Source: Gammaproteobacteria bacterium
Lineage (GTDB): Bacteria > Pseudomonadota > Gammaproteobacteria > GCA-001735895
Direction: 5' to 3'
Assembly: GCA_041821565.1 (NCBI GenBank)
Contig: JBGUEB010000003.1
Span: 1-36,313, forward strand
DNA length: 36,313 nt
The notes under the pieces were generated by a model, which made no database searches, had not been told where the DNA came from, and saw nothing but the letters and a program-made list of their open reading frames with translations. How positions within the stretch are numbered: position 1 is the stretch's first letter; each line of letters starts with the position of its first letter. Shown here piece after piece: positions 15,777 through 21,374 of the stretch. The position numbers and the translations under genes were made by a program.

Positions 15777-16223
15777 ATGTTGATGAAATATTTACATACC
15801 ATGGTAAGAGTAAACAACCTCGAGCAATCACTATTCTTTTACTGTGATGTTTTGGGTCTGGTGGAGACCGACCGCTACGAAAGTGAGGCGGGTGAATTTA
15901 CTCTGGTTTATCTGGCGGCACCGGACGATATAACCCAGGCGAATGCCGAGCGCTCACCACTACTGGAGTTAACCTATAATTGGGATGGTGAGGTATATAG
16001 CGGCGGTCGAAACTTTGGTCACCTGGCTTATGAAGTAGATGATATTTACGCTTTATGTCAAAAAGTAGTGGATCATAATATTACCCTCAACGTTCCTCCG
16101 GGCGATGGCCACATGGCATTTTTCCGCTCGCCTGACAATGTATCGATTGAACTACTGCAAAAAGGAGAGCCGCTGCTGCCCAGCGAGCCCTGGACTTCGA
16201 TGCCGGTAAGCGGGGAGTGGTAA
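15777..16223 (+). CDS. gloA: Lactoylglutathione lyase (glyoxalase I), VOC family
   Basis: YLHTMVRV, LELTYNW, GRNFGHLAYEVDDIY, MAFFRSPDNVSIELLQ; start may be 15783. Confidence 0.88.
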   Translation: MLMKYLHTMVRVNNLEQSLFFYCDVLGLVETDRYESEAGEFTLVYLAAPDDITQANAERSPLLELTYNWDGEVYSGGRNFGHLAYEVDDIYALCQKVVDHNITLNVPPGDGHMAFFRSPDNVSIELLQKGEPLLPSEPWTSMPVSGEW

Positions 16224-16253
16224 GTTTGTAATCTTGAGTCTGGAGCGATTTGC

Positions 16254-16793
16254 ATGGCTTTAGCACAGTATTTACACGGCAGTTATTTTTCGATTGAGAA
16301 TCCGCTACGGCTGTTTGATCGCTGGATAAACCCTTATTGTCATGAATGCCTTGTTCGACTGGGAGAAAAAGAACTACTGGTAAAGTGGAGCGCGCGTGCC
16401 GAAGAGGCACTTTCGTATAAATCGGAGCCTTTAATCGTTGAAATGCAGCTTTATTTTTCCTGCGTAGTGAAGAAGCGGATTGTTTTCCACGATCAGGCTA
16501 GCTTTGAAACCCTGGCGGTAAATGAGCGTTTACAGATAGCGTTTCGCTCGATCCGGGCAGCCAAATGCGACCCGCAAGAATTTGCCAGAAACTATCCACC
16601 CGGAGGCGTGCTGGATTCCCCTGCCGCTGCCAAAATGATTCCCTCATGGTTGGGCCTGGATTTCAGACAGGGGCAGTGGCAAGCTGAGTTTGGTTATCAG
16701 GTTCAAGAACCAAAAAACAAAAAAACCAGGACACCGATAGTAGGGCTACTATCAGGTGCCTGGTTCAAGGTTACGACCGAAGAGCGCGGGTAA
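16254..16793 (+). CDS. Hypothetical protein
   Basis: 179-aa ORF with protein-like core (PLIVEMQLYFSCVVKKRIVF...PSWLGLDFRQGQWQAEFGY); the last ~31 codons run through the RNA repeat and look non-native. Confidence 0.7.
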   Translation: MALAQYLHGSYFSIENPLRLFDRWINPYCHECLVRLGEKELLVKWSARAEEALSYKSEPLIVEMQLYFSCVVKKRIVFHDQASFETLAVNERLQIAFRSIRAAKCDPQEFARNYPPGGVLDSPAAAKMIPSWLGLDFRQGQWQAEFGYQVQEPKNKKTRTPIVGLLSGAWFKVTTEERG

Positions 16794-16800
16794 CACTAAT
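16711..16800 (-). ncRNA. Candidate structured RNA element, distal copy (hairpin with CGCUCUU loop plus intrinsic terminator)
   Basis: Minus strand AUUAGU-GUUAC-CCG-CGCUCUU-CGG-UC-GUAAC-CUUG-AACCAGGCACCUGAUAGUA-GCCC-UACUAUCGGUGUCCUGGUU-UUUUUGUUUUUU; duplicate of 16860-16948. Confidence 0.55.
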
Positions 16801-16859
16801 TTGTTTCTAGCCGCCAGTATCCCAAAGTTGATTTCAATTATGCTCAGTTGTGTAACGGG

Positions 16860-16948
16860 CAAACAACAAACGAACCAGATACCAGTAAGTGTTCAACTAC
16901 CTGGTATCTGGCCCAAAGTTACAACCGAAGAGCGCGTGTAACACTAAT
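16860..16948 (-). ncRNA. Candidate structured RNA element, proximal copy beginning at the nrdB stop codon
   Basis: Minus strand AUUAGU-GUUACA-CG-CGCUCUU-CG-GU-UGUAAC-UUU-GGGCCAGAUACCAG...CUGGUAUCUGGUUC-GUUUGUUGUUU; 32/35 nt identical to the distal copy over the first hairpin region. Confidence 0.55.
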
Positions 16949-18131
16949 CCCAGTTAAGCGCACCACCAGTCTGGTACTCGGTGACGCGTGTTTCAAAAAA
17001 ATTCTTTTCCTTTTTCAGATTGGCCTGTTCATCGAGCCAGGGCAGTGCGTTTTCAGCGCCCGGAAACGGGATCGCATGATCTAGTTTATTGGCACGGCGA
17101 TTGGCGATAAAACGGAACTGTGCAATATGATCTTCTGCACTATATCCAAGAATAGGTTCGGGCAGCAGAAAGTGGGCATACTGGGTTTCAGCGGCTTCCG
17201 CCTCTTCCCACATGTGCTGGATAATTTTCGGGTCGAGCTTTACTTTTTCTTCCAGAATTATTTGTTTGACTACGCGTATTCCAAACGACGCATGTAAAAC
17301 TTCGTCGCGCATGATGTACTGCAGTTGTTCAGCGGTTCCCTTCATCAGGCCTCGACGTTGCAATGCAAAAATAGGACTGAATCCGTTATAGAACCAGGTG
17401 CCTTCGAAAACCCCGGCAAAAAAGGTGTAAGCAAGAACGAAACTCTCCAGTTCATCGCGATCATTCAAATCCATATTAGAGCGTAACACCGAATCGAGCC
17501 TTTGATTGCAAAGCTGGATCTTATGGTGAATTTCGGGAACGACGCGGTAGCGGTTGTATATTTCTCCCTGATCGAGGCCAATCGATTCGATGCAATGTTG
17601 ATAAGTCCAGGTATGCATGGCTTCTTCATAAACCTGGCGCGCCTGGTAAATTTGTAACTCGGGGGCAGTCATTTTTTCCATTACTGCGAGGCCGATATTG
17701 CGCATTGCCAGAATATCTGAGGTAGTTAAATAGGACAGTACGTTTTCATAAACATGACGTTCTTCCAGGGTTAGCTTGTGCTGGTAATCATGTACATCCT
17801 GGGTCATGTTGATGTCCAGTGGTGTCCAGTGATTTTTGTTGGCGTTTAAAAAATATTCCCAGGCCCAGGGATATTTGAATGGCGCCAACTGGTTAATATC
17901 CGCCAGCCCATTAACCACTCGTTTGTCGTCGGCGTTAATCGGTTTGGCAACAACCGGACTGATAACCGGTCTTGGGATATCGATTATTTCTGACTCGGTA
18001 GCTGGCGCCTGGCGCAGATCGAGACCAACGGGTTTACCGTCAGTGGATTCGACGCTAGCAATAGAAGCTTCCAGACTCGGTGCTGGCATCCTCGGTGTGG
18101 TCGGTGCTAACGGGTCATCCCAATTAAACAT
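16944..18131 (-). CDS. nrdB: Ribonucleoside-diphosphate reductase class Ia beta subunit
   Basis: Diiron ligands TSD, EEAMH, FEG, DEVLH; radical Tyr retained (HTWTY); C-terminal EKNFFETRVTEYQ. Confidence 0.96.
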   Translation of the reverse strand: MFNWDDPLAPTTPRMPAPSLEASIASVESTDGKPVGLDLRQAPATESEIIDIPRPVISPVVAKPINADDKRVVNGLADINQLAPFKYPWAWEYFLNANKNHWTPLDINMTQDVHDYQHKLTLEERHVYENVLSYLTTSDILAMRNIGLAVMEKMTAPELQIYQARQVYEEAMHTWTYQHCIESIGLDQGEIYNRYRVVPEIHHKIQLCNQRLDSVLRSNMDLNDRDELESFVLAYTFFAGVFEGTWFYNGFSPIFALQRRGLMKGTAEQLQYIMRDEVLHASFGIRVVKQIILEEKVKLDPKIIQHMWEEAEAAETQYAHFLLPEPILGYSAEDHIAQFRFIANRRANKLDHAIPFPGAENALPWLDEQANLKKEKNFFETRVTEYQTGGALNWD

Positions 18132-18176: not shown

Positions 18177-21032
18177 CTACTGACATGCTTCACAATCCGG
18201 GTCAAGAATTGAACAGACCTTTGGTTCAGGCTCTACCAGGGTGGCTACTGGCTCCCGCGTGTCAGATTTTTCTACCGATGTGGCGCCAAGAGAACGTAGG
18301 TAATAAGTAGTCTTCAGTCCGCGAGCCCATGCCAGCTTGTAGAGATTATCGAGCTTCTTGCCTGAAGGTTCAGCCATATAAAGATTTAGCGACTGGCCCT
18401 GATCGATCCACTTTTGACGGCGAGAACCAGCCTCGACCAGCCAGCGCGAGTCAATTTCAAAAGCAGTTGAATATATCGCCTTTAGTTCGTCCGGTACCCG
18501 GTCAATACTTTGCACGCTGCCGTCGTAGTACTTGAGATCGTTGACCATGACTTCATCCCAAATACCATGCGCTTTGAGATCGTCGACCAGGTAGGGATTT
18601 ACCACCGTAAATTCGCCGGACAGGTTCGATTTGACATATAAGTTCTGGTAAATCGGTTCGATCGACTGGCTAACACCACAGATATTTGAAATTGTGGCGG
18701 TTGGCGCAATCGCCATCGTATTCGAATTACGCATGCCTATATTCATCACCCGCTCCCGCAGACTGTCCCAGTTCATACAGGAGCTTTCATCCTGCTGGAG
18801 GTAGTCGCCGCGAGCTGCCTTTAGATTGGCGATCGAGTCGATGGGTAGAATTCCCTGACTCCAGAGTGATCCCTGATAGCTGGAATAAATACCGCGTTCT
18901 TCAGCCAGTTGAGTCGAAGCCTGGATTGCATAATAGCTGACGGCCTCCATTGACTGGTCGGCAAAATCTATCGCCTGTTCCGAGGTATATGGAATGTGCT
19001 GTATGTACAGTGCATCCTGAAATCCCATGATGCCCAGGCCTACCGGTCTATGGCGAAGGTTAGAAGTGCGTGCCTGTTGGACACTGTAGTAGTTGTAATC
19101 GATTACATTGTCGAGCATACGCATTGCGGTGTTGATGGTTTTCTCGAGCTTTTCCAGATTCAAACCATTTTCATCCACGTGCTGCGGCAGGTTGACCGAG
19201 CCCAGGTTGCATACTGCAATTTCAGTGTCCGATGTATTCAGGGTAATTTCCGTACACAGGTTGGATGAATGCACCACGCCTGAATGGCGCTGCGGTGAAC
19301 GGATATTGCATGGGTCCTTGAAGGTTATCCATGGATGTCCGGTTTCAAACAACATGCCAAGCATCTTGCGCCACAGGTCAGTGGCAGCTACACGCCGGTA
19401 ATAACTAATCTCACCCCTGTCGGCTTTTTCTTCGTAGGCAATATAAGCGGTCTCAAACTCCAGCCCGTACAATTCGTGCAATTCGGGTACTTCGTTGGGT
19501 GAAAACAGGGTCCATTGCTGTTCCTCGGCGACGCGTTTCATGAACAGATCGGGAATCCAGTTTGCCGTATTCATATCATGCGTACGACGGCGTTCTTCGC
19601 CTGTGTTTTTACGCAGATCAAGAAAGTCTTCAATATCCAGGTGCCAGGTTTCGAGATAGGCACACATTGCGCCTTTACGCTTGCCGCCCTGGTTGACAGC
19701 TACTGCCGTATCATTGGCCACCTTGAGGAATGGAACCACTCCCTGAGATTTGCCGTTGGTACCCTTGATGTGTGATCCCATCGCTCGAACCCGGGTCCAG
19801 TCATTACCGAGCCCCCCGGCAAATTTAGAAAGCATGGCATCGTCCTTGACTGCGCTAAATATGCCGTCCAGGTCATCAGGAACCGTGGTTAGATAGCAAC
19901 TGGATAATTGCGGACGCAAGGTGCCTGAATTGAACAGGGTGGGTGTGCTGCTCATGAAATCGAACGAAGACAACAAGTTATAGAATTCGATTGCCCTTTC
20001 TTCCCGATGAACTTCATTGATCGCCAGACCCATCGCAACTCGCATGAAGAATGCCTGGGGTAACTCAAAGCGTAGATCGCGGTAATGGATGAAGTAACGG
20101 TCATACAGAGTTTGTAATCCCAGGTAGGTAAACGCGTGATCGCGTTGTGGCTTCAGGGCCTTGCCGAGTTTTATCAGGTCAAATTTCAACAGCTCCTTAT
20201 CTAGCAGTTCGAGATCGGCTGCTTTTTTAATGTAATGTCTGAAGTATTCGGGGTAGCGCTGGGTCATTTCCTCAAAGGTGGCAGTGGGAATACCATCATT
20301 GATGAATGTCAGCGATTCAGTACGCAATTCATCCAGCAGTAATCGTGCGGCGACCTGTGAATATTCTGGTTCGTGATCGATTAATCCGCGGGCACTCATG
20401 ACTAATGTGGGACTGACATCCTTTGCCGAAACGCCATCGTACAGATTCTTCATGGTTTCAGCGTAAACACGATCCGCGTCAGCGCTCTCAAGACCGTTGC
20501 AGGCTTCGCTGATAATGGTTTTAAGACGCGAGGTGTCTAGCGCAATCGTGCTGCCATCCTTTAGCTTGACACTGAGATTGATAATTTCATCGAGGTCCGG
20601 GGTTTCTGGTTCTTCGATGCGTTCCTGTGCCCTGGCGTTCGATCGTTCTTCACGATATAGCACGTAAGCGCGCGCAATTTTTTGGTCGCCATTGCGCATC
20701 ATTGCCAGTTCAACCTGATCCTGGATGTCTTCTATATGGAAGGTGCCGCCGTCTGGTTGGCGTCGAGTCAGGGTTTCGACTACGAGGTCAGTGAGTTTTT
20801 CTACGGTTTCGTGAACTCGTGTGGACGCCGCCGCCTGACCTCCCTCTACAGCGAGGAATGCCTTGGTCATCGCAATTGCGATTTTGTTTTTGTCAAAACC
20901 GGTTAATTTACCATTGCGGCGGACGACCTTGTAATTAGTGATGAGTGAACTATTGTATCCCTCGGTTATAGTACCGAGTGGTTTTTCAGAGGTTATAGAC
21001 GCCGCGGTGAGAGGTGATTCAATGTTTTGCAT
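18177..21032 (-). CDS. nrdA: Ribonucleoside-diphosphate reductase class Ia alpha subunit (two ATP-cone-like N-terminal domains)
   Basis: TPTLFNSG, QLSSCYL, SNLCTEI, VCNLGS, APTATIS, TTYYLR, C-terminal CEAC redox pair. Confidence 0.97.
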   Translation of the reverse strand: MQNIESPLTAASITSEKPLGTITEGYNSSLITNYKVVRRNGKLTGFDKNKIAIAMTKAFLAVEGGQAAASTRVHETVEKLTDLVVETLTRRQPDGGTFHIEDIQDQVELAMMRNGDQKIARAYVLYREERSNARAQERIEEPETPDLDEIINLSVKLKDGSTIALDTSRLKTIISEACNGLESADADRVYAETMKNLYDGVSAKDVSPTLVMSARGLIDHEPEYSQVAARLLLDELRTESLTFINDGIPTATFEEMTQRYPEYFRHYIKKAADLELLDKELLKFDLIKLGKALKPQRDHAFTYLGLQTLYDRYFIHYRDLRFELPQAFFMRVAMGLAINEVHREERAIEFYNLLSSFDFMSSTPTLFNSGTLRPQLSSCYLTTVPDDLDGIFSAVKDDAMLSKFAGGLGNDWTRVRAMGSHIKGTNGKSQGVVPFLKVANDTAVAVNQGGKRKGAMCAYLETWHLDIEDFLDLRKNTGEERRRTHDMNTANWIPDLFMKRVAEEQQWTLFSPNEVPELHELYGLEFETAYIAYEEKADRGEISYYRRVAATDLWRKMLGMLFETGHPWITFKDPCNIRSPQRHSGVVHSSNLCTEITLNTSDTEIAVCNLGSVNLPQHVDENGLNLEKLEKTINTAMRMLDNVIDYNYYSVQQARTSNLRHRPVGLGIMGFQDALYIQHIPYTSEQAIDFADQSMEAVSYYAIQASTQLAEERGIYSSYQGSLWSQGILPIDSIANLKAARGDYLQQDESSCMNWDSLRERVMNIGMRNSNTMAIAPTATISNICGVSQSIEPIYQNLYVKSNLSGEFTVVNPYLVDDLKAHGIWDEVMVNDLKYYDGSVQSIDRVPDELKAIYSTAFEIDSRWLVEAGSRRQKWIDQGQSLNLYMAEPSGKKLDNLYKLAWARGLKTTYYLRSLGATSVEKSDTREPVATLVEPEPKVCSILDPDCEACQ

Positions 21033-21161: not shown

Positions 21162-21197
21162 TTGGTAGTTAAAGTGATTTATAACTTTTACTACCAA
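21162..21197. repeat. 14-bp inverted repeat (13/14) in the nrdA 5' leader
   Basis: TTGGTAGTTAAAGT-8 nt-ACTTTTACTACCAA. Confidence 0.75.
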
Positions 21198-21264: not shown

Positions 21265-21294
21265 ATTATAGCACCTCAATTCGGGAAAACACAA
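21265..21294 (-). promoter_or_regulatory. nrdA promoter (extended -10)
   Basis: Minus strand TGcTATAAT (21273-21265); candidate -35 TTGTGT 18 bp upstream, inside NrdR box 1. Confidence 0.65.
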
Positions 21295-21304
21295 TATAAT
21301 GTGT
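21289..21304. promoter_or_regulatory. NrdR box 1
   Basis: ACACAATATAATGTGT matches the NrdR consensus acaCwAtATaTwGtgt, upstream of nrdA. Confidence 0.88.
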
Positions 21305-21320
21305 TTTGAATTCACGCCAA

Positions 21321-21336
21321 CTACCTTATATTGTGT
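21321..21336. promoter_or_regulatory. NrdR box 2
   Basis: CTACCTTATATTGTGT (reverse ACACAATATAAGGTAG), offset 32 bp from box 1, the usual tandem spacing. Confidence 0.8.
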
Positions 21337-21365
21337 ATTGAACTGTGGACTGGCCGGGTAAAACT

Positions 21366-21374
21366 TGTGGATAA
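21366..21374 (-). promoter_or_regulatory. DnaA box
   Basis: TGTGGATAA = reverse complement of the consensus TTATCCACA, upstream of the nrdA promoter. Confidence 0.7.

Follow-up and report, generated by a model that had tools for sequence, protein, structure and literature searches.

The DNA analysed here (referred to as the window) is a stretch of 36,313 nt from an uncultured marine-sediment gammaproteobacterium, covering positions 1 to 36,313 of contig JBGUEB010000003.1 in assembly GCA_041821565.1. Its minus strand carries nrdA upstream of nrdB, that is, a class Ia ribonucleotide reductase operon according to Pfam. Two direct copies of a short structured module lie at the 3′ end of this operon, and the first of them starts in the stop codon of nrdB. 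Each module is made of a conserved block of 25-38 nt, a linker of 4-5 nt, a terminator hairpin and a U-tract. Judging from its sequence, the module is probably an undescribed conserved RNA element of the 3′ untranslated region (3′UTR) and a candidate regulatory RNA from the end of the nrdAB message. The operon and the parts of both modules are given below in the direction of transcription, with structures that correspond to the minimum free energy fold marked as MFE.

18177..21032, minus: nrdA, large subunit, 951 aa (Ribonuc_red_lgC, E 1.4e-194, and Ribonuc_red_lgN; ATP-cone matched in two stretches)
16944..18131, minus: nrdB, class Ia ribonucleotide reductase small subunit, 395 aa (Pfam Ribonuc_red_sm, E 1.4e-59)
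16861..16948, minus: proximal module copy (covariance model placement 16864-16956, 81 bits)
16918..16942, minus: proximal 25-nt core GUUACACGCGCUCUUCGGUUGUAAC, with GUUAC...GUAAC arms (hairpin 1, called fold A below)
16875..16911, minus: proximal hairpin 2, a terminator-type stem CCAGAUACCAG/CUGGUAUCUGG (inverted repeat, MFE, covariation in relatives)
16860..16874, minus: proximal tail UUCGUUUGUUGUUUG, a U-tract with interruptions and no stretch of five U (from the sequence)
16801..16859, minus: spacer between the copies, homologous to the spacer of the relative G016 (pairwise alignment)
16713..16800, minus: distal module copy (covariance model placement 16715-16808, 76.5 bits)
16770..16794, minus: distal core GUUACCCGCGCUCUUCGGUCGUAAC, with two inner-stem changes (fold A is the MFE, with a CGCUCUU loop)
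16724..16765, minus: distal hairpin 2, terminator stem (inverted repeat, MFE)
16712..16725, minus: distal U-tract, U7-G-U6 (from the sequence)

The two copies form a single direct-repeat family of 88-nt units (16713-16800 and 16861-16948, minus strand) that are 70% identical and lie 148 nt apart from start to start. This agrees with an initial annotation of the stretch, made by a model from the letters alone, which had described two copies of ~90 nt at that distance from the nrdB stop codon onwards. The block reads AUUAGUGUUAC(A/C)CGCGCUCUUCGGU(U/C)GUAAC, and the 32 identities in 35 nt that had been claimed for it are recovered when counting starts at AUUAG, with three differences between the copies. 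The GUUAC...GUAAC arms of the proposed hairpin 1 were likewise located in both copies, at 16918-16942 and 16770-16794, and the TAG stop codon of nrdB (16946-16944) falls within the repeated AUUAG of the proximal copy. The arms of hairpin 2 occupy 16875-16890 and 16896-16911 in the proximal copy (88% complementary) and 16724-16743 and 16746-16765 in the distal copy (80% complementary), the latter showing compensating changes relative to the former. The folding energy of each copy beats all 200 shuffles (z of -4.56 and -4.71 on the minus strand); folding of the plus strand is comparable (z of -4.60 and -5.22), and energy alone therefore gives no choice of strand. A G+C-rich hairpin directly followed by a U-run, the hallmark of an intrinsic terminator, is found in the distal copy and in 38 of 40 copies in relatives, while the tails are interrupted in the proximal copy and in both copies of G016. 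A simple terminator scan flagged neither copy, because the sizes of their stems and loops are not within its limits.

These two copies are the only ones in the 3.54-Mb assembly, both by BLAST and by a pattern search allowing up to three mismatches. With two copies here and one or two per genome in 45 genomes, a dispersed repeat such as a repetitive extragenic palindrome (REP) or a miniature inverted-repeat transposable element (MITE) was rejected. An Rfam search over the whole window returned no match at gathering score, in line with the initial annotation, which did not recognise a named RNA family, and a relaxed search gave two chance microRNA matches only (E 0.69 and 2.1). Two other studies provide contigs that run across the spacer separating the copies (16766-16894, with no differences, and 16714-16887), so the tandem arrangement is not an assembly quirk.

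The module recurs in relatives. With BLAST, 24 of 36 genomes belonging to the same genus have a match to its first 45 nt, at 82-98% identity. An exact-pattern scan of ~185,000 species genomes yielded 38 stretches, 37 of them in records of uncultured gammaproteobacterial metagenome-assembled genomes; the remaining one, in Paenibacillus, is accompanied by neither nrdB nor a terminator. As assessed by tblastn, nrdB is directly upstream in 37 of 39 gammaproteobacterial loci, the two exceptions being a locus that is cut 66 nt ahead of the element yet shows the end of nrdB, and one second copy. A covariance model of 91 positions and 23 pairs, with which 49 full-length instances were collected, detects the module in 45 of the 61 genomes of the genus at one or two copies per genome. 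The same model finds it in none of 18 genomes from three sister genera and in none of 150 other families of the class; in five of the sister-genus genomes, unrelated sequence follows nrdB. Among the 16 genomes of the genus that gave no match, ten were inspected: in two of these nrdB is cut by the contig end, and in five the C-terminal half of nrdB was not found. A scan of metagenomes for further stem variants gave at least 122 stretches. Among those listed, ten are true elements and the remainder chance matches; the stem arms are the same in nine of these ten, the tenth (L199) having a C for the inner A of the 5′ arm. The module is a general single-copy tail of nrdB, confined to one genus of uncultured marine-sediment bacteria.

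Its consensus is (A)ACCGAAU(U/C)AG(U/A)-GUUACACGCGCUCUUCGGUUGUAAC-(C/U)UU, after which come a hairpin with a CCAGG/CCUGG base and U6-8. The 25-nt core is identical in 35 of the 44 nrdB-linked copies from 44 genomes in the covariance-model set, and the nine others carry one to four differences that fall chiefly within the loop's 5′ half. Across the 120 nt of nrdB next to it, by comparison, 38 of 40 third codon positions are variable and their mean pairwise identity is 63%, in a set that was partly gathered with a pattern fixing some core letters (unlike the 44 copies, which come from the covariance model). The terminator helix has turned over while remaining paired: 9 of its 15 pairs have changed on both sides and 91% of its cells are paired, which bears out the initial description of hairpin 2 as diverging in sequence and keeping its pairing. 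The covariation score of the whole structure is 0.203, against 0.123 in shuffles (none of 500 reaches the observed value) and at most 0.088 with slid partners. Furthermore, the helix contains 38 G-U cells and 4 A-C cells, an excess that places the selected RNA on the nrdB-sense strand, the one that had been proposed. A run of at least five U follows hairpin 2 in 38 of the 40 copies listed, the only two without it (as a T5 run in the DNA) being the proximal copies at both tandem loci.

Stop codon and core are separated by 1 to 123 nt, and core and terminator hairpin by a fixed distance; on this sequence evidence the module is coupled to the terminator rather than to the stop codon. Past the terminator lie genes of at least 12 Pfam families, found in both orientations (a heptosyltransferase is co-directional in eight loci and a thiamine pyrophosphate enzyme convergent in five), and the sequence itself is unrelated between species. 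Given this variety of downstream genes, the element is not a leader and belongs to nrdB. A small open reading frame (ORF) or stop-codon read-through was rejected, since the GUG found here is GAG in a third of relatives and the spacer lengths break any frame. An integron attC site, a loop of the iron-responsive-element type and a bidirectional terminator were ruled out by reading the sequence.

The conserved block can fold in two ways. Fold A, that is, the hairpin 1 of the initial annotation (GUUACA/UGUAAC), is paired in 99.4% of cells, and its letters never covary. Fold B joins (A)ACCGAA to UUCGGU(U) and AGUGU to GCGCU; this is the MFE structure in most copies when 13 upstream nt are included, with energies of -9 to -14 kcal/mol as against -5 to -10 kcal/mol for fold A. 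In the proximal copy of this window, the letters of the core pair in fold B with the last nrdB codons CAACUGGG, and AGUGU with GCGCU. In the clade whose module starts in the stop codon, to which this window belongs, AACCGAA gives way to the nrdB codons AACUGGG, with pairing preserved as G-U at all three differences. Fold B explains the conservation of the upstream ACCGAA, as well as the tolerated variant in which AGUG becomes AGAG and re-pairs two letters along GCGCUCU. No covariation was found for either fold, and fold B does no better than its shuffles. In the distal copy, two changes make fold A the MFE, with CGCUCUU as its loop. The initial claim that a plain terminator does not explain the conserved first hairpin survives in the identity of the core, whereas the hairpin as it was drawn is rivalled by a more stable fold and lacks covariation. 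The two predicted folds are mutually exclusive. A pseudoknot combining CCGAA/UUCGG with GUUACA/UGUAAC was discarded: its one-letter third loop makes a classical H-type arrangement sterically implausible, which is why the two pairings are treated as alternatives. The segment CUUCGG-UUGUAA may also resemble helix 16 of 16S rRNA; the only 16S sequence found consists of N in its 5′ part.

Adjacent pairs of modules occur in only 2 of the 45 genomes, namely this one and its closest relative G016, whose NrdB is 96.6% identical over residues 73-395. The spacers are homologous in both species, and the duplication is therefore older than their split. Proximal copies are near-identical between the two genomes and distal copies have drifted, the distal loop of G016 having decayed to UGCUCCUCUG. 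The layout initially described, a leaky proximal tail followed by a strong distal one, holds in this genome (UUCGUUUGUUGUUUG versus U7-G-U6) but not in G016, because neither tail has a U-run there. Additional copies are found elsewhere: G029 has a second copy in good condition that lies ~320 nt behind an unrelated ORF, 8 kb away from nrdB, and retains the stem arms, UCUUCGG and a U8 tail, and G068 has two matches at contig ends that are possibly one locus. As a separate observation, arrays of a short repeated motif (AAAWCTRGATTT-like, such as AAATCTGGATTTGCC and AAAACTAGATTG) are found after nrdB in element-free genomes (L103 of G082, L155 of g26 and L157 of g27), and AAAWCTRGATTT-like arrays also flank the free second copy of G029 (L031, 1340-1480).

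Starting from an element whose strand, linkage to nrdB, conservation and terminator covariation are plain from the alignments, we tentatively favour, by analogy with known systems, a module that most likely yields a 3′UTR-derived base-pairing small RNA (sRNA) of ~85-90 nt. Transcription within nrdAB, processing, action in trans and involvement of Hfq may all be part of this scheme. Such an sRNA would arise by cleavage of the nrdAB transcript and not from a promoter of its own. The terminator hairpin and U-tail would be retained as its 3′ end, possibly as a handle for Hfq, and part of the invariant block (CUCUUCGG / UUGUAAC) would pair with other RNAs, whose fate would then follow the expression of ribonucleotide reductase. 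In this genome, with a proximal terminator that has no U-run and a strong distal one, read-through could give both a one-module and a two-module RNA. The hfq gene (99.8 bits) and RNase E/G genes are present, and the 5′ border of the block, R-N-A-U-U/C with an invariant AU, agrees with RN|WUU, the RNase E consensus. A scan for consensus promoters over 16200-17400, which is a weak test, gave one site inside nrdB (17284-17257) and none ahead of either copy, making processing from the nrdAB mRNA the likelier origin. As for the sibling sRNAs of the initial annotation, the features of the module fit a 3′UTR-derived sRNA, but the tandem layout is not the rule in the genus, and the lack of a promoter-like site before either copy in the same scan speaks against its proposed PrrF1/PrrF2-type organisation. 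In the contig-level metatranscriptome run X20, a 156-nt contig of a relative spans 16914-17044, that is, the 3′ end of nrdB and the core, and reaches 30 letters past the stop, one fewer than needed to count as bridging; DNA carry-over is possible, and this contig was not counted.

Several observations weigh against such an sRNA. With no promoter-like site near the copies, a separate RNA depends on unproven processing, and ProQ was not found in the genome. Targets complementary to the loop, which had been expected, gave no signal above controls in the organism's own genome: genome-wide duplex scans with 40-nt and 29-nt queries showed no excess over a reversed query (top energies of -31.2 kcal/mol versus -31.6 kcal/mol for the reversed control), and complements of 9-11 nt near start codons occur at about chance number. 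Across the 61 genomes, exact complements of the loop 11-mer are in slight excess over the reversed control, and the recurrent ones that were sampled are coding (E-E-R motifs, nuoD-like). Within the operon, no more than five pairs are possible in the nrdA-nrdB spacer and at the nrdB ribosome site, and the nrdA leader contains no conserved complement either; the best duplexes in that leader cluster near -75, on a small G+C-rich hairpin with unconserved letters. Invariant stem letters that do not covary fit recognition by a protein or at the DNA level equally well, and all copies but one are tied to nrdB, as those of a purely cis-acting element would be. The element is, moreover, dispensable, as seen from intact nrdB genes followed by other sequence in the remaining three inspected genomes (G025, G082 and G080) and from decayed copies, one being the distal copy of G016 and the other a distal-type copy in G003 that lies ~130 nt after a different hairpin.

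One candidate target was set aside: a 14-nt complement (with G-U pairs) in a genome repeat of at least four copies (C70, C154, C198 and C226) corresponds to chance expectation. The repeat itself (C70 ~8237, C154 start, C198 ~3900, C226 end; L136-L139) spans ~100 nt or more, is often found at contig ends and looks structured (..GCGAGACGGCGAAAGGUCGUGCC..GACCGAAGAGUGCGCAGGCAUAGUCGAC..), with no Rfam match.

Some of these points would be equally expected of a cis-acting element at the end of the message, in which the block would set the fate of the nrdAB mRNA through its stability, protection of its 3′ end or a protein sensing nucleotide or iron metabolism, possibly as a two-fold switch. We regard this, the main alternative, as somewhat less likely than the sRNA. 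One of the folds pairs at or just after the nrdB stop codon and may be opened by the terminating ribosome. The near-exclusive association with nrdB would follow naturally, and both alternative pairings are kept across the genus, fold B being the MFE in most copies; the AACUGGG-for-AACCGAA differences, which all pair as G-U, and the AGAG variant, which re-pairs along GCGCUCU, are consistent with this too, and the invariant letters of the stem are as would be required for sequence-specific recognition. However, neither fold has statistical covariation, the free copy of G029 keeps the block away from nrdB, the spacer of 69-123 nt in three species weakens a coupling to the ribosome, and neither the nrdA leader nor the nrdA-nrdB spacer contains a conserved complement. 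We know of no candidate protein that binds the block. Both folds could also be combined with the favoured sRNA in a two-state RNA switch where the nrdAB message ends, a model that we consider unlikely. In the fold-B state UUCGGUU would pair back to sequence at or just past the nrdB stop codon; this partner would be lost to a terminating ribosome or through cleavage by RNase E, fold B would convert to fold A, and the GUUACA/UGUAAC hairpin would display its CU-rich loop, so that the released RNA would report to its targets the translation of ribonucleotide reductase in addition to its transcription. If true, this would link the supply of deoxynucleoside triphosphates to other pathways in a marine-sediment genus.

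A plain intrinsic terminator with an upstream flank that has stayed conserved but serves no function (through recent descent, low local mutation or gene conversion) is decidedly unlikely: hairpin 2 with its U-tract is indeed a standard terminator, and the element is restricted to one genus and lost or decayed in several genomes, but the core remains identical in most copies while third codon positions next to it have diverged and the terminator stem has turned over, and the sequence beyond the terminator is unrelated between species. That the arms form a perfect and invariant 6-bp inverted repeat, GTTACA-N13-TGTAAC, could instead reflect a DNA site bound by a dimeric protein. This is very unlikely: the 13 nt between the arms are no less invariant than the arms themselves, the fixed partner is a terminator of RNA type with a G-U bias that reflects selection on one strand at the RNA level, nrdB is the only conserved flanking gene, and each genome has a single site. 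We consider it highly improbable that the block is a boxA-like site for NusB-NusE modulating termination at the end of nrdAB, the alternative put forward in the initial annotation. CGCUCUU does equal the start of phage lambda boxA, ~25 nt ahead of the terminator, and the boxA of lambda nut sites and of rrn leaders has the letters (C)GCUCUU in common with the block. The remaining consensus is absent, however, with 6-7 of the 12 consensus letters in agreement and CGGUUG rather than UAACAA coming next; relatives vary the very letters that are shared (CGUCUCUU, CUCUCUU, GGCUAUU) yet keep UUCGGUUGUAAC; and the site stands at the end of an operon, before its own terminator and with unrelated or convergent genes beyond, not in a leader. 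The sole full match to the boxA consensus in the assembly is inside an ORF and not in an rRNA leader, and the genome therefore offers no reference boxA. Finally, ACACGCGCUCUUC in the loop looks like the stem of a common Illumina adapter save for one missing letter, and an assembly or sequencing artefact could be suspected. This can hardly be credited: the element lies mid-contig, including in a 3.7-Mb single-contig genome, in the records of many separate projects, and it always follows nrdB, with arms that are absent from the adapter, species-specific substitutions and a covarying terminator. In practical terms, the adapter-like core loop (16923-16939, minus) could trouble trimming or assembly, and the RNA contig of run X20 appears to carry adapter-like remnants at both ends.

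The closest known systems are the 3′UTR-derived, RNase E-processed Hfq sRNAs of enterobacteria and Vibrio (CpxQ, SdhX, NarS, GlnZ and OppZ), in which a short conserved block, better kept than the sequence around it, likewise separates the stop codon from a Rho-independent terminator. Further likenesses are the use of the terminator as a shared 3′ end and a central metabolic operon as parent; the present module is known from sequence alone, and differs from these sRNAs in its longer block (25-38 nt), its two competing folds and its restriction to one uncultured genus. In a review on such RNAs, conserved sequence between stop codon and terminator is said to possibly mark the seeds of 3′-end-derived sRNAs (PMC9438474), and SdhX (PMC6393394) and NarS (PMC7038943) are examples of 3′UTR-derived sRNAs. 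The terms 'nrd' and 'ribonucleotide' are absent from that review, and nrdB is not among the parents that it lists. Similarly, the literature searched on nrdB/nrdAB, UTR-derived sRNAs and Hfq yielded no conserved RNA at the 3′ end of nrdAB; a paper on nrdB and UTR-derived sRNAs concerns the 5′UTR.

The PrrF1/PrrF2 pair of Pseudomonas aeruginosa is alike in its head-to-tail arrangement of related units ~150 nt apart and in the possibility of a longer read-through RNA. Each PrrF gene is intergenic and has a Fur-controlled promoter to itself, whereas the units described here have no promoter-like site, the first starts in the stop codon of nrdB, and the tandem state is confined to two genomes, in one of which the second unit is decaying. 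DNA precursors are supplied through ribonucleotide reductase, whose known regulation in bacteria takes place at the promoter (through NrdR and DnaA) or in the 5′ leader. If the module acts as a regulatory RNA, it would equip the ribonucleotide reductase operon with an RNA output and provide a clean, alignable candidate for a new RNA family in bacteria that are known only from marine-sediment metagenomes. If it acts in cis, it would be a bacterial counterpart of the 3′UTR control of ribonucleotide reductase messages. The stability elements in the 3′UTRs of the mammalian R1 and R2 mRNAs are similar in being cis elements of a ribonucleotide reductase message, proposed to couple its fate to the state of the cell; they are eukaryotic, protein-bound and unrelated in sequence, and the analogy holds for the cis-acting alternative only.

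The distal module also overlaps a gene on the opposite strand:

16254..16793, plus: conserved convergent gene of unknown family (homologue in a relative 74% identical over 150 aa)

No Pfam family was matched by this ORF, which on sequence grounds is a real gene. Its homologue in the relative terminates at ...GYSV, 29 codons earlier. The ORF in this window does not have the stop codon of its homologue, and its last 29 codons and TAA (16704-16793) run antisense through the whole distal copy, with the TAA falling inside the distal core. As a result of this 29-codon extension, nrdB and the convergent gene both terminate inside a module copy.

Upstream of the operon, a hairpin in the nrdA leader (21164-21195, minus) lies ~130-165 nt ahead of the nrdA start, with a conserved loop (..GUUAUAAAUCACUUUAAC..) and a stem that differs in a paired manner, GGUAGU/ACUACC here versus GAUAGUU/AACUAUC in most relatives; it had no match in the Rfam search of the window. 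Further upstream of nrdA (~21288-21336 and 21365-21373, minus), two A/T-rich palindromes, ACACAAUAUAAGGUAG and AACACAUUAUAUUGUGUU, resemble NrdR boxes, and the same region contains a perfect 9-mer, TTATCCACA, of DnaA-box-like sequence. NrdB itself starts with M-F-N-W-D here and with M-L-N-W-D in most relatives, and ends with L-N-W-D (18117-18131 and 16947-16958, minus). The codons at this end of nrdB, AACUGGGAU, are closely similar to AACCGAAU of the element, a similarity that may account for the spacer deletion in this clade.

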